Source: Isurus oxyrinchus (Eukaryota). Taken from it: 64,000 bases of DNA. The stretch lies in contig JANJGN010000002.1 of assembly GCA_026770705.1 (NCBI GenBank), positions 67,766,001-67,830,000 of the forward strand, written 5' to 3'. Within the stretch, counting starts at the first letter, position 1. The number at the start of each line of letters is the position of its first letter. The position numbers and the translations under genes are program-made. Positions 5,274-63,700 of the stretch are shown in pieces. The notes under the pieces are model-generated. The model saw nothing but the letters and a program-made list of their open reading frames with translations, had not been told where the DNA came from and ran no database searches.

Positions 5274-8200
5274 GGCAGAATTTTTCATGTCACTGGCATC
5301 AGATGTGTTCAGCAGCGGGAGCAGACAATATGGTGAGAAGGGCAAAAATCGGTTTCATAATGTCATGAAACCAGTTTGCAGTTGTCCGCTCCGCTCATCA
5401 ATGGTTGGCCATGTTTCCCACTGCCGGACGTCGGGAACTTCATGGCGATACATCTGCATATCTTTATAAGCCCAGCTCACCGGAATCATCCCCCACTCCG
5501 GATCATCCAAGCATGTCAGCGGGAAACACGCTGGTGCAGAACATGTCTTGACAATTGTGATGTGCAGAAGTTGGGACCTATCGTCAAGGTCTTGCTCACA
5601 TCGTGGACATCCGAGGTGCAGGAGAGCCCAACAGCAATGGGAGCTTGGAGGAATATCCATTGCATGCTGGGTGGATTCACATGAACATGGCTCTGCTGCA
5701 AAGCAGCTAACGGAAGGTGGAAAATCACCATTGAGGGCCTGCTCAGTATCTTGGCCATGGTCTGCAATGGATGGCCATCAAGGGGGGAGGGGTCGAAGGA
5801 AGATCCAGCTGTGTTTGGGAGAGGAAGATGTACCACGGGGGTGGGAGAGATCTAGATTCAACTGGGAGAGGAAAGTGTGTTGGGGAGTTGAGATTTAGAG
5901 GGCAGGAACAAAGGTGTTGAGGGGATGAGGTAGGGAGGTGAGATTGGGAGTGGGTGGAGGGAGTGTAAGGGGGAGGGGGTTGTGCAGAAGACGGCAGCTG
6001 GGGAAGTCGATGTAGGGGGGGAAGAATGCGTAATGGAAGGAGTTCGGAGAGGGGAAGGAATCTGGGCTGTGGGGGAAGGAGTCTGGCTGGGAAAGGAGTC
6101 CAGGGGGACGAAAGAGTCCAGATAGGGGAAGGATTGAGGGTGTATGAAGAAGTAAGGGTGAAGGAAGGAGTCAGGAAGGGGGAAGGACCAAGGAGCAGAA
6201 GGAGTCCGGAGGGAAGAAGGGGTCCAGGGGCAAGGTGGTGGAAAGGAGTTTCAAGGGGGCAAGGAGTCTGGAGGGGGAAGGACTAAGGGGCAGATGGAGT
6301 TCGGTGGGGAGAAGGGGTTCGGGGGCAGGGTGGTGGGAAGGAATTCCAAGGGGGTAAGTAGTCCGGACTGGGGGCATCCAGTGAATGTGCAAGGGAAGGG
6401 TCTGTGAAGTCCTTGACTGCCTCCTGGGAAGCGAACAGAGGGTGGTCATGGTAGGAAGGAATGGTGAGAATGACCGAGGGCAGAGTGAGACGGGAGGGCG
6501 AGGATGTGACTGTTTCAGTAGAAGGGATGGTGAGGGTGGTTGGTGGGGACTCGGAGGCAGATACGGACCCTGGGGTTGGGAAAGAGGATGTTGGGGAGGT
6601 TAATGTGGATGGGGGTGGGATTTTCGAGAAGGAAGAAAACGTGCACGGTTCTCATCCCCAAAAGAAAAGGGTTGTGGCTGGTCAGTGATGGTGGGGAGGT
6701 GGAAGGTGATACCCGGGGGAAAAGAATTGAGTGACTGGGGATGGGGAAAGGATGCGGTACCTCAAGAAAAACTGTAGCATTACCATGCCTGCTAAATCAA
6801 AAGTGAAAGGAGAGTTGTGGTGGGTAAGAACAGATGCTGCATGGGAGTGTGATCAGTGGGTTGGGTGGAGATGCAGGTCAGCTCAGATGGTCAACTGAAA
6901 GAGAACCCCAGCATTGAAAATGCTCAAAACATCGAGATGAGTATGATGCATGAAGGATCCACATACATGGGAGAGTGCTTGCCACAAACAACTTCTCCCT
7001 CCAGAATCACTCGCAGGCCTGCTGTGTGCAGTTGAACTGCTAGTGGGGGGCTAGGGGGGTATGCAGGAAGATGACTCACGCAGCCTGTCAATGAAGCTGA
7101 AAGACACCATTACACATATTTCAATGAAAATTAATATATTTTCAGATTGTAAAGTGACAAAATGTCTTCACCCATGTGACTAACTGTGACCAGAATCTCT
7201 TACCTTTTCTACACCTTAGACCTCTAGGTGCTAGCCGGACATCCACAGCAAGGGTGGAGACAGCCTGTGCAAAGGTTGGCCCTGTTGCCTCTGATGACTT
7301 TGATGTGAGTCCTCTGGAAAGCTGAGGTCTTGGGGGCCTTGGCTTCTTTTGGCTGTCCTCCTATGTGCCAGCTGCTTCCTCTGCGGTGACAGAGGACCAA
7401 GTTGAGGGGATCACAGGCAAAGGGGACTTAGAGGGAGCAGGCAGCCTCTGAGATTCCTAAGTACATGACTAAGGGGTATCCAGCTGACACTCCTCCTCCT
7501 TTCAGGTGCCCGAGGGTCCTGGCCTGAAACCTTGAGGGGAAGGAGCACCTGGAAGGATGTTAATGTGCCCTGTTTCCCTCTCGCATTGCCATTGCAGGAA
7601 TTCACCCATGGCTACCGCAATGGTGCGCAGGTCTGCATACATCTTTGCATTCTGCTGGACCAGGGACTTCATGGTGTCCTCCATCCTTCCCATGGAGACC
7701 TCCATATGCGTACATGTGGGCAGCACTTCATCAGAAAACAGGCAGATACACTCACCTGACTAGTGTGCCACTCTGTTGAGAGCTTCCAACAGCTCTGCAT
7801 GATTTTCCCCCTCTTTCTGCTGACTCTCCACAGTGAGTTGGAAGTCCAAATCCAGAGGCTCGTCATCTGACTCGGACCTTACAGATGCCTCTTCCCCAGC
7901 AGCCCTCCGAGTACTGAGGAGCTTGGCTGAACCTGCCTCCTTCTGCTGTGGACACATATCCATGCGGTGACCACCAGATTGTGAACCCAAGCCTGCTCAA
8001 CATCTAGGTCCCACCGAGGTGTGTGTCTCTGCACTAATGAAGGGTGTGGGTAAGCGCTGTGACGGATCTTCCAGGCTGCTTATTTCTATCTCTCCAATGG
8101 AGGGTAAGTTCTCTTGGCTGGAGATGAAGACATGGATGGAGCTGAGGGACTGGCTGGCTGAGGGTGTCGGTCACTTGGCAGAGCTCCCTGTGAACCAAAG

Positions 8201-12166: not shown

Positions 12167-12421
12167 GGCTCACAAGTGGATAATAGGAAATTATTGTAAT
12201 TGCACATTATATTTAAAGCTAAAAGGTTCTGGTTTTACTTGCTTAGATTTTGGTCATAATGTGGCCTCATCAACAGTCCTTATAGAAACTTCTGGTGGCT
12301 GTCAGCAAAAAGGTAAGTGAAACTTTTAAATTTACCTGTATTTGAAACCAGTGTAAAAATGGCTGCTCCTTTTGCTCCACAGCACTACCATAGGCCAGTG
12401 CTATCTGATCACTAGTTATAT

Positions 12422-12666
12422 TATTACTGTGGTTTTATCTCAGGATTTGTTAGTTTCTTATTTTAGAAGAGATCTTGCGGGAGGCAATGTCTTGTTTAAA
12501 ACACAGTTATTTACATGCTGACAATTTACAAAGGTTAAGTAACAAAGACATAGCTGGAGCTGCTCTCTGCTATACTACTCAGTCATCTTCTCTCAGTGAG
12601 TGACATCACTGTGATCTTTATGAACATGTTCAGTGGTTAACAGTAGAGTTAACTGTTTACTCTACA
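12422..12666 (-). repeat. 3' LTR with adjacent polypurine tract (12667-12688)
   Basis: Begins TGTAGAGT on the minus strand and aligns by eye with 19993-20219. Confidence 0.85.
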
Positions 12667-13690
12667 TACTGCTCCTCCCCCCACCCCCAAGGTTCACTCT
12701 CCAACAAACTGTCAACCTTAAGCACTATTTACAATTTCCATCTGACTCCTACTCCTCCCACCCTCAACCCAGTCACTTTTTCCAAAGGTGTTAATCCCCA
12801 TGTGTTCTCAGCTCCCTTGGAGGATGTATGTGTACCCTTATCATCTCTTTGGAAGGCAAACACATTGGTGGAGTGGGATAGCAGCTTATCATGACAGCTG
12901 GCTCCTGGGCTTGTGACATTTACAATGACCTGAATGTAAAGGCAGTGAAGACCAAACAAGGAAAAAGTGATTCAAGAGAGAACCTTTCAGGACTGGACCG
13001 ATCACAACCTCTTGAAAAGGAAGACAACAAACTGAAATTCTCCCTCTCATCTTCTGGGGAAAGGTGAAAGCACTGGCCTGATAAAATGAAGCACTTTTGG
13101 CTCCTATGAAGAACCTCACAGCTGTATCATTCACTGTGCTGTGATGACGGGAGAAGCATTCAATGCCTAATCAAGGAATGAATCTCTTAGATGAAAAGAA
13201 GAATGGAGAACATTCTGAAGATACTGCTGGAGATGATGAAAGGAGGGCCTCCTTACTACTCTTAGGGTTGCAAGTTCCCTTTCAATCATTAGGTTGGATG
13301 ACTTCCACGCATGCTTCAGCGTGAAGCTGCTCCACTGCAGATATCACGGGGTCAGCAGGAGAAAGTAGGATTGCACGATCATCAACAATGGGATAACCAT
13401 CAGGACCGGATCTATAGGCAGTTCCTGCATTGTACTCTTGTCTGCAGACTTGCTTGAAAGTTCAGCAAAAGTGTTGGGTGTTTTTATGCAAGAGTCTCAG
13501 TAATAGGACAGAAATAGTGTCAGTGCTTCTTCAGATAATTGCCCTGTAGCCTACTCTTTTGTCTGATGCTATGTCATTTCCTTAGATGCTGTTTGCATTT
13601 ACACACTCCTGTACTGCAATATGCTCAATTTGTTTTGTTGTTGCACAATTTCTAATGTAAAATCCCTCTCTGTGGCTTCGTAGTGCTGGG

Positions 13691-14017
13691 TGACTGCTGA
13701 TAGCTGGATTTTAGTTCAGCCTTCTCTCTTAGATAGTTAGACTTCTCCAACTCATGCATAATTGTAATATTTTCAAGCTTCATTTGATGCTCAACTTTCA
13801 GTTTTTCTAAAGTACTCTTCAGCTACAGAAACTCCGTAGTTTGGGCCTCTGCTTCTTTACTGAAAGAAAGCTTGAGTGCTTCCATGATTTGCTGATGAGA
13901 TCCAAGTGTGAGCCCCAGCTTACATTTGTACAGATTAATAAACTCTGAACTTTAACTATTGATTTAAAATAATTTGGAGATAAGCACCTCATTCTCCCTG
14001 GATAGCTGTTTTTCTGA
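13691..14017 (-). pseudogene. CLIP1: CLIP1/CLIP-170-like coiled-coil fragment captured inside the Gypsy element
   Basis: Manual translation: SEKQLSRENEVLISKLF*INS*SSEFINLYKCKLGLTLGSHQQIMEALKLSFSKEAEAQTTEFL*LKSTLEKLKVEHQMKLENITIMHELEKSNYLREKAELKS. This is colinear with human CLIP1 as recalled ([82 protein letters not shown]). Three in-frame stops. Confidence 0.75.
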
Positions 14018-14329
14018 CTACGTGTAATTGTTGTTGCATGTCATTGGTGGGCTCAGTGGAATAAGCAGACAAATTCACCTCTTTATTACCTTCTTCAAAA
14101 AAGGAGTAATTCTCATCAAAAGAGATCATTGGCAGTGGAGACTTTTTCTTACAACATCTCCCTCAATGGCGGTTTCATTCTCTTGTACTGTTTCCTGAAA
14201 GAGCAAATTAAGGTCCAGAATGTCATGTTTTGGGTGGTCACCATAATTCCTGATACATCCTATTCCTGCTTCTTCCAGCTTGTCCCAAAGAGAAGCGAAA
14301 GAACTGCAATGTCTTCCTGTGGTCCCAGG

Positions 14330-14683
14330 ATTGAATAGAGGATGGTTGCAGTGTCTCTTTATTCAGCCATGAAACTCTGTCAGATAACATTGAGGTCCCA
14401 GCTCCCATGTCTAGTTCGGTCAGTTGCCCCTTTACACCAAAGTCAGCACTCCAATACTGGCTTTTATTTTCCTTTACTTCTCCTAGGAAGATGAATTCCT
14501 GGTTGTCAAAGACTTGAATTTCATGAATGGAGGTTCCTTTAATAGATTTCTCCTTTTGGCTTGTAAAAACGGATTCTCTGGAACGGCTGACCGTTTTAAA
14601 ATGGCTTAACTTGCCACACCATTGTCACTGTGCAATTCGGGTGGGGCGTTCTTCCTGCCTGTGGACCATCTTCCCACCAGCAT
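14330..14683 (-). pseudogene. Gypsy gag zinc knuckles and aspartic protease remnant
   Basis: ..HRQEERPTRIAQ*QWCGKLSHFKTVSRS (degenerate CCHC), then FLGEV..YWSADFGVKGQLTELDMGAGTSMLSD (DTGA-like). Confidence 0.75.
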
Positions 14684-15157
14684 GGACATAGGACAATGGC
14701 TGTTATGGATATATGAAATAGGAACAGAAGTAGGCCATTTGGTCCCACGATATTTGATAATATCATGGCTGATGTATTTGTGTTTCGAATTCCACATTCC
14801 CATCCACCCCCAATAACCTTAGTTTCCCTTGCCTAACAAAAACCTAGCTACCTCCACCTTAAAAATATTCAATGAACCCGCCACCACTGCCTTCTGACGC
14901 AGAGAGTTCCAAAGTCGTACAACGCTCGGAGAGAAAAAAATTCTCCTCATCCCTGTCCTAAAAGAGCAACCCCTAATGTTCTGGACTCACCCATAAGAGC
15001 AAACATCCTTTCCACATCCACCCTGTCAATACTATTCAAGATCTTATATACTTCAACCAAGTCATCCCTCACTTTCTAAAGTCCAGTGGAAACAAGCACA
15101 GCCTGTCCAACCTTTCCTCATAAGACAACTTGCTTATTCCAGGTATCAATCTAGTAA

Positions 15158-15374
15158 ATAAAAGCAAAATACTGCAGATGCTGGAAATCTGAAATAAAAA
15201 CAGAAAATGCCAGAAAACTCAACAGGTCTGGCAGCATCTGCGGATAGAGTTGTGCAACTTTGGAACTTTCTGCCTCAGAAGGCGGTGGAGGTAGGGTCAT
15301 TGAGTATTTTTAAGGCAGAGTTGGATAGATTCTTGTTAGACAAGGGAATCAACGAGTTAATGTTTCAATTCCGG
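15158..15374 (-). mobile_element. Short Penelope-terminal-repeat-derived element nested in CR1, containing a small plus-strand CR1 piece
   Basis: AAAAGCAAAATACTGCAGATGCTGGAAATCTGAAATAAAAACAGAAAATGC motif shared with 20520, 29700-29799 and 54793. Confidence 0.7.
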
Positions 15375-17478
15375 AACCTCCTCTGAGCTGCCTCCAATGC
15401 ATTTACATTCTTTCTTAATTAAGGTGACCAAAACTGCACACAATATTCGAGATATGGTCGCACCAATGCCCTATATAACTGAAGCATAACATCCTTCCTT
15501 TGATGTTCAATTCCTCTCATAATAAAGAATAGTATTCCATTAGCCTTCAAAATGACTTGCTGTACCTGCAAGCTAACTTTTTATGACTCATGCGTGAGAA
15601 AACCTAGATCCCTCTGCATCTCATTCCCAAAGTAATACTCTGCTTTTTTTCCTGCCAAAGCGAACAACTTCATATTTTCCCACATTATACTCCGTCTGCC
15701 ATATTTTTGCCCACTCACTCAACCTATCTATATCTGTCTGCAACCTCCATTTGTTCTCTTCACTTCATACTTTCCTACCTATCTTGGTGTCATCTGCAAA
15801 TTTAGCTATCATGCCTTCACTCCCCTCACCTAAGTCATTGATATAAATGGTAAAACGTTGAGGCCCCATCACAGACCCCTGTGGGACTCCACTCGTTACA
15901 TCCTCCAACTCAGAAAAAGACCCATACTCTCTTTTCTGCCAGCCAGCCAATCTTCTATCCGTGATAATATGTTACCCCCTACACCATGTTTTCCGCAATA
16001 ACCTTTGATGTGGCACCTTATCAAATGTCTTTGGGAAATCCAATTTACAGCACGTCTATAGGCTCACCTTTATCCACCGCACATGTTACTCCTTCGAAGA
16101 ACTCCAATAAATTGTTTAAATGTTATTTCCCTTTCACAAACCATGCTGACTCTTCCCAATTACGTTGAGTTTCTCTAAGTGTCCAGCTATAACCTGCTTA
16201 AGGATTGATTCTAACACCTTCCCTGAGAAGGAAATAAGCTAACTGGCCTATAGTTTCATGTTTTCTGCCTCCCTCCCTCCTTGAATGGAAGTGTTATATT
16301 TACTACTTTCCAGTCTGATGGAACCTTTCCAGAATCTTGCAAATTTTGGAAAATTATCACCAACGCATCTACTACCTCATCAGCCAGCTCTTTTAATACC
16401 CTAGGATGATGCCCATTAGGACCTGAAGACTTGTCAGCCCGCAGCTCCATCAGTTTGCTCAGTACTGCTTCCCTAGTGATTGTAATTTCACCAAGTTTAC
16501 CTCTCCCTTCCATCTCACGATTTACAGGTATTACTGGAATGTTTTTTGTATCTTCCATAGTGAAGACAGAAGCAAACTATTTGTTCATTTCATCTTCCAA
16601 TTCCTTATTATCTATTGACACCCCATTGTCACTTTCTAGAGGACTAACACTCATTTTACTTACTCATTCCCTGTTTAAATACCCGTAGAAACTCTTTCTA
16701 GCTAGCTTCCTTTCATACTCTAACTTATTTCTCCTGAAAAACCTTTTAATCATTCTCTGCTTTCTTTTATATTCTGACCAGTCATCTGACCTGCCACTCA
16801 TCTTTGCACAGCTATATGCTTTTTCCTTAAGTTTGATGCTTTCCTTAACTTCTTTAGTTAACTACAGATGATGGGTCCTGTCCTTGGAACTCTTCTTTAT
16901 AGTAGGAATATACTTATCCTGAGTATTCTGAAATATCCCTTTAAATGTCTGCCGCTGCTTCTCTATTGATCTCTCCCCAAGTCTAGCATCCAAATTTATT
17001 TCAGTCAACTCAGCTTTCAAGCCCACATGTCTGCCCTTATTTAAGTTTAAAATACTGGTCCTAGACCCATTCTTCTCCCTTCCAAACTGGATGTAAAATT
17101 TAATCTTATTGTGGTCGCTGCTACCTACGGGTGCCTTCACTCTGAGGTCATTAATTAACCCTGTCACATTACACAATACCAAATCTAATATAACAGGCTC
17201 TCTGGTTGGTTCCAGAGTGTGCTGCTGTAAAAAACTATATTGAAAGTGTTCTATGAACTCCTCCTCCAGGCTAGTACTGCCAATCTGATATTTCCAGTTC
17301 ATATGTAGATTAAAATCATCCATGATTATTACTATCCCGTTATCACAAGCAGCCAATATTTCTTCTTGTATATTTTGTCCTACATCCTGGTTATTGTTAG
17401 GGGGCCTGTATAGCACACCCACTAGTAACTTCTTTCCCTTACTATTCCTTGTCTCCACCCAAACCGATTTTACATCCT

Positions 17479-17609
17479 ATGTGCTCTGAAGAAGAGTCAT
17501 ATACACTTGAAACATTTACTCTGTTTATCTCTCCACAGATGCTGTCAAACCTGCTGGGTTTTTCCAGTATTTTCTGTTCTTACTTCAGATTTCCAGCATC
17601 CGCTTTTAT
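17479..17609 (+). mobile_element. 131-bp Penelope terminal-repeat unit with a degenerate hammerhead core
   Basis: CTGAAGA-AGAGTCATATACACTT-GAAA at 17486. Flanked by a 14-bp imperfect duplication CGATTTTACATCCT / CGATTCTACATCTT. Confidence 0.75.
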
Positions 17610-19110
17610 CGATTCTACATCTTGATGTCCTGAATCAAGGTCATCTCTAACTATTGCACCGATGCCATCCCTGATTAACAGTGCTACCCCTTCACCTTTA
17701 CCTAGCTTCCTAGTCTTCTTGAATGTCATATACCGCTCAATATTCAGGACCCAATCCTTGTCATCCTGCAGCCATGTCTCCATAATGGCTATCAGATCAT
17801 ATTTATTTACTTCAATGTGTGCTATCAATTTGTTTACTTTGTTATGAATGCTACCTGCATTCAGATACAGAGCCTTTAGTTTTATCTTTTTGTTATTTTT
17901 GTAACATCTAGTCTTCACTATTGGTGCATTCTTAGGTTTTATCTCTCTGTCCCTTCCTGTTATTCTATACCCTCATTTTCCATATTACTATTATGGTCTT
18001 CTGCCTTGAATCTACCCCTTGATTTACTACGTCTACTCAAGCTTGACCCCTTGTTTTAGTTTAAAGCCCTCTCTACTTCCCTAGCAGGGTTCAGGTGCAG
18101 ACCATCCCAATGGTACAGCCCCCAGTTTCCCCAGTACTGGTGCCAATGCCCCACAAACTAGAAACCACTTCTCCCACACCAATCTTTGAGCCACACATTC
18201 ATCTCTCTAATCTTATTTGCCCTATGCCAATTTGCATGTGGCTCAGGTCATAATCTTTTGATGTTCTGCTTCTTAATTTGATATCTAGCTTCCCATACTG
18301 AATATGCAGAATCTCCTTCCTTGTCCTACCTATGTCATTGGTACCTACATGGATCACAACAACTAGATCCTCCCCCTCCCACTGCAAGTTCCTCTCCAGC
18401 CTTGAGCAGATCTCCTGAACCCTTGTACCAGACAGGCAACACAGCGTTCAGGACTCTCGCTTTTTGCTGCAGAGAACAATGTCAATCCCCATCACTATAC
18501 TGTCCCCTCCTACAGTTCTGTTTTTCCTACCTGCTTGAATGACTTCCTGTACCATGGTGCCATGGCCAGCATGTTCATCAATCTTGCATACCTCACTTTT
18601 GTCCACACAGGTTGTGAGCATCTCAAACCTGTTTTTGACAATTGCAAAATCTGAGGATCCTCCACTACTGTCTGCTTGGTCTTTTTACCTGCCTCACTCA
18701 TGGTCACATCATCCTGTCCCTCAATGCTGACCAAAACAGATGACCCTATTCTAAGGGGCGTGACCATCTTCTGGAACAAAGAATCAAGGTATTTCTCCCC
18801 CTCCCTTATGTTTGTGCAGTGTCTGCAGTTTGACTTCCAGATCAATAACCCGGGTCTGGAATTTCTCTAGCTGCTTACAATTTATTTAGATGTGTTTGTC
18901 ATGGATCGCCTTGATGTCCAAAAGCTTCCACATTCCACAGCTGGAAAATAACACCTGACTTGCCAATGTTACTTACGTTATTTAGTTAACTTAATTTAAT
19001 TATTCACTTAATTAACTTAGAATAATTTCTACATACACTACACCTCTTTCTCCCATTTGCCAAATTCCCATGTGAACCTAATTTGCTGCTCACTCGGTCT
19101 CCCGCTCACC

Positions 19111-19800
19111 CCAGCATAGGTGCCTGTCTCCTCATGTGACCCTTGTTCATTGCTGCCTTTTCAGAGCATTTCCCTGGTTGCTGCCTTGCTATATTTTCAG
19201 TTTTACAAGCCACAAACTGAACGAATTCATAGAACTATTCTTGGGAAATTTCCCTCACTCCTCTGACAAAAGCATTATTCAGCCTCCACTCTTTGACCTG
19301 CTTGGCCAATTGTACAGCTTTGCTTAAATTGAAATCTTCCAGAGATTGTAAAAAGTTAGAGAGTTTTTCATCCAAATCGCCAATGACTATTCTATCTATG
19401 ATCAGGCCATCTTTTAGTGTTTCATACTCACAATTTTTGGATAGGCAGTACAATTTGTTGATGAGTGAGTTGATCCCTTCACCCTGTTTTTGACTGCATT
19501 GATTAAATTTGGCCCTCTTGATCACAATTTTTTATGAATACTGAAGTATAAGTCAAAGGCTCCGATGACATCCTCATAGGATGCTGTCTGTTCATTCACC
19601 TTCTGTCTGGCTAGCATGTCATCTGCTATGCTCCCTATAGCATATAACAAAGTGCTAACTTGATCTTTGTTTGGTTTACTTGCAAAACCTGAGGCATTGC
19701 AGTACCGGGTAAATAGCCTTTGCTAGTTTTGTCATTGCTCAGCCTGTCCGGGGACTTCAATATTTCGAAAGCATTCTGGTAGGGACAAAGTAGTAGCCAT
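19111..19800 (-). pseudogene. Gypsy gag N-terminal/capsid remnant
   Basis: KRAKFNQCSQKQGEGINSLINKLYCLSKNCEYETLKDGLIIDRIVIGDLDEKLS..LSKAVQLAKQ. Upstream QVSTLLYAIG..ADD in another frame. Confidence 0.85.
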
Positions 19801-19992
19801 TTTTCAGCCTGATTCAAAGTTGCATTTTCCAGTTGCTGGCCAGCTCTTGTTATTTTGTAATTTCAAGTGTGCTTGCTGGGTTGGCCTTAAAGTCCTTCAC
19901 CAACTGAACTGCATTATTGTTGGGCTTCACTTGAGGTCTTTTCTGCCATTTTCTACTGTTTCTCTGGGGGTGTAGTCACTGCTACCAACATC

Positions 19993-20219
19993 TGTTGCTG
20001 TGGTTTTATCTCGGTATCTGTTAGCTTCCTATTCTAGACGTGATCTTGCTGGAGGCAATGGTCTTTTGTTCAAAACACATTTATTTACATGCTGACTATT
20101 TACAAAGGTTAACTAAAACCAAGATGTAGCTAGGGCTACCCTCTGAGATGCTACTTTCATTGAGTGACATCACTTGATATATCTCCTTATGCACATGCTC
20201 AGTAACCCTTTACTCTACA
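19993..20219 (-). repeat. 5' LTR with tRNA-iMet-like PBS at ~19977-19987
   Basis: TGTAGAGT...CAGCAACA on the minus strand, followed by TGGTAGCAG. Confidence 0.85.
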
Positions 20220-54792: not shown

Positions 54793-55662
54793 ATAAAAGC
54801 AAAATACTGCAGATGCTGGAAATCTGAAATAAAAACAGAAAATGCTAGAAAAACTCAGCAGGTCTGGCAGCATCTTTGGACAGAGAAGCAGAGCCAACGT
54901 TTAGAGTCCGAATGACTTCTTCGGAACTGAAGAGAGGTAGAAATGTGATGGTTTTATACTATTGAGAAAGGGGGGAGCGACAGGTAGAGCAAATAGAAGG
55001 CTAGGGATAGGTTAAAGAGCATGAGAGTTTAAATGACAAAGATGTCATGGAACACAAGACAAAGGGAGTGGTAATGATAATATTAAAAAACTTCAGACTT
55101 TAATACTATCATTATTACTCCCTTTGTCTTGTGTTCCATGACATATTTGTTACTTAATCTCCCATGCTCTTAACCTATCCCTGGCCTCCTCTTTTGCTCC
55201 ATCTGCCCCTCCCCTCTTTTTTCAAAAGCATAAAACCCATCATATATCTGCCACTCTTCGGTTCCGAAGAAGAGCCATATGGGACTTGAAACATTAACTC
55301 TGCTTCTCTCTCCTCAAATGCAGACAGAAAGAACATATACACATATTGTGCCTGTTTTAGCTAAACAAATTAAGTGACAGCCATTTGTTGGTTCATTCCT
55401 CAGGGCAATGCCTTGATCAATCAGAGTTAAGCTGCCTGGTTTAAATTTCAAACACGGTTTGACAGTTAACTAGTCGGTCATCATCAACTGGTGTATGCTC
55501 CATGGCAATGTCTCTACCAATCAGAGCCCACTTGCCAACCAATCAGCACTCGCTTCTCATATAGTATAAACTTGTTTTCTTTACATTGGGTATTCTTGCG
55601 AATTGTCCTGATGAGTGCAAAATAAAAAGCTTTGACAAAAAGTGTCTCTTTTTTCAGCAATA
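54793..55662. mobile_element. Non-coding Penelope derivative: inverted terminal repeats plus a second hammerhead-bearing repeat
   Basis: Arms ~54860-55087 and ~55099-55328 are reverse complements. 55330-55662 is the reverse complement of 27915-28210 and includes CTGATGAGTGCAA at 55608. Confidence 0.8.
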
Positions 55663-61618: not shown

Positions 61619-63700
61619 GGCTGGGGTTTTCTGTGCCAGCCAGCATTAGCTGTGTTCAATGGCCTGAGCAGACAATATGGTGCAATTGGTTTCACAACAG
61701 CGTGAAACCAGTTTACGATCGTCAGCTCAGCCCATCGATGGCGGGTTGCATTCTCTGCCATTGGATGTTGGGAATCTCCTTATAATATGTCAGCATATCA
61801 TTATTAGGTCTGTCCACTGGGATCATCCTGCCCCTGCTGGATCGTCCGCCCATGTTGGTGGGAAAGCATGCCGGTGTAGAACCCACTTTGACAAGTGTGA
61901 TGTACAGAAGTCGGGACTTACCCGCCAGGGCTTTGCTCACATCACAGACATCCAAGGAGCAGTAGATGCTGGAGCCCAACACCAGCAGCACATGGAGGAA
62001 CGTATATAGCATGCTGCGTGGATTCTTATGGATTCTCTGCTGTGAAGCATCTCACGGAAGTTGGAAAATTACGATTGATGCTCACAGCAGATGATGGTTG
62101 AGGGGGAGGGAGAGAAAGGGCTAGGGTCGGCTGGGAGAGGAAGAAATGTTGGGGATGGGAGTGGCAGGGAGAAATGAAGGTGTCAGGGTTGGGGGAGGTT
62201 TGGGGGGGTAGAATGAAGGTGGAAGGATGGGGTGAGTTTGGGGAGAGTAGGGAGAACAGTGGGAGGAGGGGGCAATGGGGGAGAAGATGGCAACTAGTGA
62301 GATAGGTGTAAGGGGGTGTGAAAGGTCCAACGGAAGGAGCGCGGAGAGGCCATGGTGTCTGGGTGAGGAAGGGGTGCAGAGGGGACGGTGTCTGCTGGGG
62401 AGGAAGGAATGCGGAGAGGGGATGGAGTAAGGGTGGAGGAAGAAGTAAGAATGGAGGAAGGAGTTAGGAAGGGGGAAGGACTAGGGCAGAAGGAAATCAG
62501 GCTGGAGGAGGAGATGAGGCCGGAGGAAGGAGTTGGGAAGGGAGAGGGGATTAAGCAGGTGGGGAGAGTCTTGGGTGGGGTGCGATGACTGGTGGGGGGA
62601 GGGGGTGGGGGGGAACGGCTCTTGGGGGCAAAGTGTTCTGGGTGAGAAAGGGTTCTTGGAGGAAGAGGTTCTGGGGGGTGGGGCACAGAGGAGGGAAGGG
62701 GTGCAAAGTGGGGAAGACGTGCAAAGGGGGGAAGGCATGTGAAGGGTGGAAGGGGTACAGAGGGAGGGGTGTGCAGGTGGACGTGCATGGGAGAGGTCAG
62801 ATAGGTCCATATCTGCCTCCTGGGGAGAGAACTGAGGGTGGGTGTAGTAGGAGGAAGGGTGCGAATGACCAAGGGCAGAGTGAGACAGCAGGGTGGGAGT
62901 GTGAGTGTTCGATGATAGCAATAGAAGGCATGAAGAGGGTGGTTGGTTTGTACCTGGAGGCAGACACGGACCCTGGGGATAGGGAGGAGGAGGTCAGGGA
63001 GGTGATTGTGGATGGGGGTGGGTTTTTCGGGAAGGAAGGGAACGTACACGTTCATCTGGACATCCCCAAAAGGAAAAGGGTTGTGGCTGGTAGGTAATGG
63101 AGGGGAGGTGGAAGGTAATGTCAGGGTTGGAGGGGGTTGGGGAAGGCAACGGTGATAGGGGAAAGGAAATGGGTTACTGGGAGAGGTTAAAGGATGGAGG
63201 AGTTGAAGTAAAACCGAATTAGCACCATGCTATTCAAATTAAAACTAGATGAGATCATATGCTGCATGGGACTGTGATCATTGGGTGGGCGGAGATGCAG
63301 GTCAGCTCAGACGGACAACTGAAAGCAAACCCCAGCAGGCAACATTGAAAATGCTCAGGACATTGAGATGAGTGTGAAACATGAAGGATCCATGTGCATG
63401 TGAGAGTGATTGCATGAGGCTCCAAAAGCCCCTGCCACACACACACTTTTCCCTCCAGAATCACTCATGGGATGGCTGCTCCCTCTGCAGTGGCAGGTCT
63501 TCCAGGCTGCTTATTTCCACCTCTTCACTGGAGGAGGAGTCCTCTTGGCTGCAGATGATGAAGTGGATGGAGCTGAGGGATTGGCTGGCTGAGGGTGTTA
63601 GTCCCTTGGCAGAACTCCCTGTGAACCAAAGTGGAGATAATTAGTGCATGACAGCAGAGTCAAAAGCAGGAGAGAGAGCACTCACAGCTGTATTGAGGGA
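61619..63700 (-). mobile_element. Second copy of the Myb-bearing Harbinger family, internally deleted and truncated
   Basis: Starts after CTAG (61615-61618). Colinear with 5274-7010, then jumps to the 8065-8270 equivalent. Confidence 0.85.

Follow-up and report, generated by a model that had tools for sequence, protein, structure and literature searches.

Acutely transforming retroviruses carry gag-onc fusions in place of pol/env and are helper-dependent. The shark family described here is built similarly, with coding sequence of the host joined in frame to gag and an apparent dependence on helpers, but it is a germline Gypsy family for which neither env nor an exogenous phase was seen and whose captured part shows no selection at the sequence level. 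Host fragments that took the place of internal ORFs by an LTR-mediated process have been described in animals (PMC5131818). In the cases detailed there, as in the shark family, host sequence stands in for part of the internal ORFs between the LTRs, as a partial duplication, and the chimera keeps moving as a non-autonomous element. Those cases are young retrocopies with one or few insertion sites, whereas the shark family has far more than 100 loci and several subfamilies, and its fragment is fused in frame to Gag and protease (Gag-PR) and was moved between helper lineages.

The plant elements RLG_Quinta from wheat (GAG+DUF1; PMC11302176) and TR-GAG (PMC8704663) resemble the shark family in having a single Gag ORF without reverse transcriptase (RT) and integrase (IN), an LTR and primer binding site (PBS) type in common with an autonomous partner, and recombination between lineages; Quinta, too, has a tail domain of unknown kind. 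Mobilisation in trans with their own Gag has been proposed for both. The shark family differs in its vertebrate host, its partly kept protease, and its tail with an identified host exon piece. It is likely of the Gag-supplying semi-autonomous type, the putative use of its Gag in particles being suggested indirectly by the dN/dS of gag (see below). Host-derived coding pieces inside proteins of transposable elements have been surveyed (PMC3597677), with purifying selection reported for 8 of 24 testable fragments; in the shark family conservation extends to the frame but not to the residues. Modules common to several element lineages are also described for rotifer retroelements (PMC5408684), but these are separate ORF3s, several of them enzymatic, whereas the shark cassette is fused to Gag-PR.

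LTR elements that capture other sequences are thus already known, as are helper-dependent families with Gag only. New is the combination: a vertebrate Gypsy Gag-PR-host-exon fusion, widely amplified and re-grafted across lineages, with conserved frame and free sequence. No report of this family, and no paper that combines CLIP-170 with a retrotransposon and gag, was found in the openly accessible literature, and neither CLIP1 nor sharks are mentioned in the supplements of PMC3597677 and PMC5131818 (all but one file each). The family represents a vertebrate gag-onc-like architecture in a Gypsy retrotransposon that was amplified widely in the germline.

The copy analysed lies on the minus strand of the window, i.e. 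the whole 64,000 nt stretch of DNA under study. Its 5' LTR (19991..20219) starts with TGTAG and finishes with CAGA, the ends having been placed by comparison with other copies. It is paired with a 3' LTR (12420..12666), and the two are 75.7% identical (blastn). Together with a PBS of tRNA-Leu type (19972..19987; motif matched in 11 of 41 aligned rows) and a polypurine tract (12667..12688), which was read from the sequence and keeps its position across copies, the paired LTRs fit the Ty3/Gypsy lineage of LTR retrotransposons. The PBS complement equals the end of 65 genomic tRNA-type sites, three of which were analysed by ARAGORN (two Leu, one Trp). Among these 65 genome-wide matches, tRNA-Leu-type 3' ends are clustered on contigs C26, C38, C42, and C49. 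An LTR terminus of CA-GA instead of CA was found in 11 of the 15 elements with both ends placed; such ends concern window positions 12420-12424 and the A-type copies L042-L080, L089, and L097. The candidate 5-bp target site duplication (TSD) of the window copy is eroded (3/5 match). A TSD with at least 4/5 matches occurs in 3 of 15 elements, the mean match being 2.13 versus 1.29 after shuffling (maximum 2.33 in 2000 shuffles). The best TSDs (L046 and L070, 5/5; L043, 4/5) begin past the GA; L057 instead fits the CA end.

The Gag capsid region and the start of the family ORF (ATG at 19800) are located at 19150..19800 and contain three private stops; in L246, a relative that has pol, the homologous gag gave a weak PNMA match (Pfam, E 0.0014). 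Gag is interrupted by a later insertion cluster (14705..19149, no strand assigned) with LINE endonuclease remnants (Pfam Exo_endo_phos matches). This cluster of ~4.4 kb is absent from the elements of other copies, and copies without the interrupting insertion are ~3.4 kb long. The Gag zinc-knuckle region follows (14500..14704; weak zf-CCHC match, E 0.06, in sister copy L063) and then the N-terminal half of an aspartyl protease (14325..14460; RVP/gag-asp_proteas, E ~0.004, in L063). The window copy is a member of a subgroup without the in-frame 225 nt that code for the C-terminal half of the protease; the catalytic Asp is kept in 22 of 39 copies.

RT, RNaseH, and integrase gave no Pfam match in the six frames of 12641-14704, and without these enzymes the element is not an autonomous Gypsy element. 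Their place is taken by a cassette of ~1.6 kb. It consists of an acidic linker of ~130 codons between protease and CLIP1 piece (14034..14324 in the window; D+E 23%; predicted disordered), the captured piece of a CLIP1 coiled-coil exon (13690..14033; exon nt ~259-607 of 945; predicted helical), and a C-terminal ORF part of ~290 codons (12791..13689; the family's common stop is near 12793). In three relatives with the same LTR and gag (L090, L095, L097), Pfam RVT_1, RT_RNaseH, and Integrase_H2C2/rve matches occur in that order, so that these relatives carry PR-RT-RNaseH-IN as is usual for Ty3/Gypsy; after the protease, the ~1.6 kb of the family does not match their pol. The replacement of pol proposed in the preliminary description is thus upheld, except that the CLIP1 piece represents only ~350 nt of the non-pol cassette. 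Other internally deleted relatives (L089, L094, L096) keep pol fragments and not the cassette, with deletions that differ among them in this sample.

For a natural stretch of 359 codons, AlphaFold predicts long helices that cover the CLIP1 piece and continue shortly beyond it, between a linker and a tail that are both disordered (mean pLDDT 54); in sister copy L050 the linker has a pLDDT below 50. Searches for a donor of the linker and the C-terminal part yielded nothing in Pfam (sense or antisense), nothing in the Atlas at 0.9 or higher, and nothing in the remainder of the host CLIP1 locus or in the pol of the relatives. Nine matches in a representative library, each consisting of 5-16 short stretches, were provisionally taken as repetitive chance matches.

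The translation of the 109-codon frame at 13691-14017(-), with its three stops, agrees with the earlier quotation, and the stops are private to the window copy (a stop at the same columns in 3/39, 0/39, and 2/38 other copies). The genome (4.98 Gb) has a host CLIP1 locus on contig C13, with two CAP-Gly and CLIP1_ZNF matches on one strand and a 945 nt coiled-coil exon with 81-89% identity to five CLIP1 proteins from sharks, which marks the host as a shark (probably a galeomorph, to judge from the protein tree described below). The window segment matches this exon with 77.7% nucleotide identity over 319 nt (E 3e-66) and 61% amino acid identity (E 6e-35), and it shows 63% identity to CLIP1 from Hemiscyllium. 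A protein profile built from 14 copies matched three of 7999 scored proteins. All three are CLIP1 from sharks (E 1e-37 to 4e-41), generic coiled coils being absent from the matches. As a lone query, the segment had no match in the same database (5.8 billion proteins), in the PDB, or in Pfam, since it is too diverged or was crowded out (a protein search of the own genome was filled by family copies). The assignment to CLIP1, made earlier from the letters alone, was therefore decided by the host locus and the profile, and both bear it out. Such CLIP1-like fragments, far more than 100 in number, can mislead shark gene annotation. A side observation concerns the host CLIP1 locus (L022-L041, C13:35298360-35295973, minus strand), which contains an open coiled-coil stretch of 796 codons, possibly a very large exon.

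The location of the captured piece stands as first given, but its boundaries were corrected to ~14033-13690, about 350 nt (349 nt of exon). In 39 copies, the match begins near exon nt 259 and finishes near 602-607, distant from both splice sites. The piece is thus contained within one exon and does not cross a splice junction. An mRNA route of capture is our inference. That the CLIP1 piece is an independent later insertion was ruled out by the recurrence of the same exon endpoints. Similarity fades over ~15 nt at the junctions, beyond which donors of the flanking sequence were not found. As had been noted, CAP-Gly domains were not captured: a DNA profile of the group-A cassette gives one match, the exon-internal piece, in 200 kb of the host locus, so the C-terminal zinc knuckles of CLIP1 are absent as well.

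About 145 distinct cassette loci were fetched (tally from place lists). Of 272 candidates in the first search, 40 were scored; the first-look candidates of later searches numbered 521, 840, 979, and 1272, sets which overlap and do not represent copy numbers. Copies were selected as top BLAST hits and are a non-random sample. The cassette alignment excluded seven group-A copies with large insertions and two near-duplicate loci, the group counts excluded three C-front copies and E_L145, and the front-end lineage and strict selection comparisons used copies with an alignable front end only. The CLIP1 piece is present in 39 of 39 fetched copies and is thus family-wide. Group A has the full piece, whereas groups D, E, and F are devoid of 387 nt which include its 3' third; identity to the host exon declines from 83% (nucleotides) and 73% (amino acids) in A to 59% and 36% in F. 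Different flanks, LTR pairs, and long terminal branches led us to reject segmental duplication as the origin of most copies. Some near-identical or closely related pairs (L044/L048 on C4, L059/L064 on C6, L207/L208, L162/L164) suggest segmental duplication or haplotig redundancy.

The examined copies are decayed, each of L042-L080 having at least eight frameshift-like breaks. Gag, protease, and cassette nevertheless were one ORF, as the preliminary description had suspected for the ancestor. Stops were counted per column in 39 copies, and a stop was taken as shared where it made up at least 40% of a column. By this measure a single sense frame stays open over 2661 nt (window ~19806 to ~12793), whereas the other five frames reach 111-345 nt. 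This is the frame of the CLIP1 piece, ~885 codons from the gag ATG. In three further subfamilies (30 copies each) the stop-free lengths are 2733 nt, 1989 nt, and 2205+489 nt; the break in the last is a column with TGA in 12, CAA in 10, and CGA in 2 copies, which fits CpG decay after insertion. In a natural copy (L065:1990-3039), zinc knuckle, protease, linker, and CLIP1 follow each other with no frameshift between them, and most group-A copies lack the 225 nt of the protease, again in frame. Private post-insertion changes served as neutral control. Fixed changes between subfamilies include no stop among 374, with 10.4 expected (P ~3e-5), and all six net inter-group indels within the ORF preserve the frame (225, 387, 9, 12, 3, and 6 nt), compared to 25% of 1021 private indels. 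That the frame stayed open by chance, in a fragment carried along as a passenger when a non-coding element was amplified, is hardly credible in view of these figures and of the length of the frame relative to the other five, unless mutations during the active phase were biased against stops and frameshifts, even though the near neutrality of the cassette residues would accord with it.

The reading frame is under selection, the cassette residues are near neutral, and Gag is strongly conserved. The dN/dS values of Gag are 0.12, 0.18, and 0.05 (p from 2e-3 to 2e-9), and those of the protease are between Gag and cassette (0.27-0.61); the conservation of Gag could be partly inherited from helpers. 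For the cassette, the fixed N/S is 2.5-3.4 compared to 2.5-2.6 in the private control. Strict pooled tests gave p=0.86 for the linker, p=0.59 for the CLIP1 piece, and p=0.69 for the C-terminus, whereas in two strict E2/F/G comparisons the cassette showed weak signs of purifying selection (p=0.03 and 0.04). These two comparisons, and a cassette dS that is low relative to gag dS (see below), speak against a purely neutral cassette. Residues invariant in vertebrate CLIP1 are lost as often as variable ones (7/39 versus 13/74 in A; 17/29 in F). The dN/dS of 0.30 between host and group A includes the constrained branch of the host itself. Purifying selection on the CLIP1 piece, as the earlier proposal envisaged, was thus not found: its fixed N/S equals the post-insertion control, invariant residues are unprotected, and a third of the piece was deleted and prolines were gained later. 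Two measures that usually go together are separated here, the frame being clearly selected and the residues not.

Autonomous partners with the same termini and gag were found for two lineages, A-type and C-type. The A-type front (gag/PR) differs from pol-type relatives in 0.5% of 616 columns. Among the best 30 C-type gag matches, gag is followed by the cassette in 24, by pol in 3, and by neither in 3; for the best 30 F-type matches these numbers are 25, 0, and 5, so that no pol-bearing partner of the F type is among them. According to front ends (gag/LTR), five lineages carry the cassette. Differences in the A/C pair amount to 0.41 in the front end but 0.05 in the cassette, and in the E1/E2 pair to 0.35 but 0.03, which indicates at least two swaps of the cassette between gag/LTR lineages. 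Such repeated re-grafting of one cassette on different gag/LTR lineages presents a parasite module that outlives its helpers.

We thus read the window element as a decayed Ty3/Gypsy copy whose pol was replaced in frame by a CLIP1-exon cassette, which likely borrowed RT and integrase while making its own Gag, and whose frame was likely kept open for the sake of translation up to the 3' end and not for CLIP1 activity (probability roughly 0.55). Capture may have occurred by RT template switching onto a co-packaged RNA, near the base of the galeomorph sharks. Mobilisation would have been in trans, with RT and integrase from autonomous relatives and self-made Gag. A stop after Gag/protease would leave an untranslated tail of ~1.6 kb on the unspliced RNA. 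Such a tail would expose the RNA to nonsense-mediated decay, so that any stop-free filler would serve; retroviral RNA with a premature stop has been reported to be degraded and less packaged (PMC5035971). The CLIP1 piece would then be a filler in a Gag-supplying, helper-dependent element. This makes the family a natural test of whether translation itself (through RNA surveillance or cis-linked packaging) limits the cargo of helper-dependent LTR elements.

The tail might instead act as a protein by its coarse properties, as an acidic disordered spacer and helix that occupy Pol's position in the particle, or that tune the Gag:Pol balance on co-assembly with helper Gag-Pol. We regard this as possible though rather doubtful. 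It would agree with the protected frame, with the predicted disordered acidic linker adjoining a long predicted helix, with retention of linker, ~74 CLIP1-derived codons, and C-terminal part in all four subfamilies, and with a cassette that was re-grafted at least twice and outnumbers pol 24:3 among the best C-type matches. However, by BLOSUM the substitutions fixed in the cassette are not more conservative than the private ones (p=0.24 and 0.47), E and F gained 3-4 prolines in the helix, and the 387 nt deletion was tolerated. Selection for the CLIP1 coiled coil as such, at least early on, would have paired it with host CLIP-170 or let it self-dimerise, tying particles to microtubule plus ends. 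The idea is motivated by the reported binding of CLIP170 to HIV-1 cores, which promotes early infection (PMC8259435), and by a piece that is in sense orientation and in frame and that in group A is still predicted helical at the above-mentioned amino acid identity to the host. We nevertheless consider it unlikely, as CAP-Gly was not captured, invariant residues are lost at the rate of variable ones, N/S equals the neutral control, and D, E, and F are without the 3' third.

Equally improbable, in our opinion, is that the cassette is important at the RNA level, as a signal for packaging, export, or dimerisation, the open frame being a secondary constraint. The cassette moves between front ends as a unit, and both its dN and dS are low relative to gag dS in the pairs C/E1, E2/F, and G/F; in seemingly co-diverged lineage pairs, cassette dS is 0.13-0.20 and gag dS 0.39-0.66, i.e. 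a third to half. This gap suggests either constraint at the nucleotide level or more swaps than were counted, and front-end swaps may account for it; moreover, A and F cassettes differ at 30% of columns. A bolder extension can be put forward only tentatively, with odds well below even. A mobile 'Pol-decoy' cassette, seeded by the captured coiled-coil exon, would have hopped among Gypsy lineages of early galeomorph sharks. Each hop would have made an autonomous element a more successful parasite, the Gag-fused tail aiding assembly or trafficking, at first possibly via CLIP-170 pairing.

In a protein tree, the captured piece is sister to galeomorph CLIP1s (support 84) and outside Pristiophorus, and the copies do not have five residue states that, among the sharks compared, only the host has. 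Capture near the base of the galeomorph sharks is a tentative placement owing to the long stem. The median difference within LTR pairs is 0.19 (local alignment of 12 elements), and terminal branches have lengths of 0.13-0.15. In a second organism (B), contigs cross the flank-LTR junction of the window (472 nt, with 5 differences and 2 gaps) and the greater part of the CLIP1 piece (660 nt, with 17 differences). The window insertion thus predates the split from organism B, roughly tenfold on these distances. The distances are inflated by CpG decay and no absolute dates were derived from them, the shark mutation rate being given per generation in the source considered (PMC10587355).

Elsewhere in the window, purine-rich repeats with a periodicity of 18 nt occur at 6009-6282 and 62217-62753 in another dispersed repeat pair, ~56 kb apart, and an inverted repeat with 73 nt arms (89% complementary, spacer of 11 nt) is located at 55015-55171.
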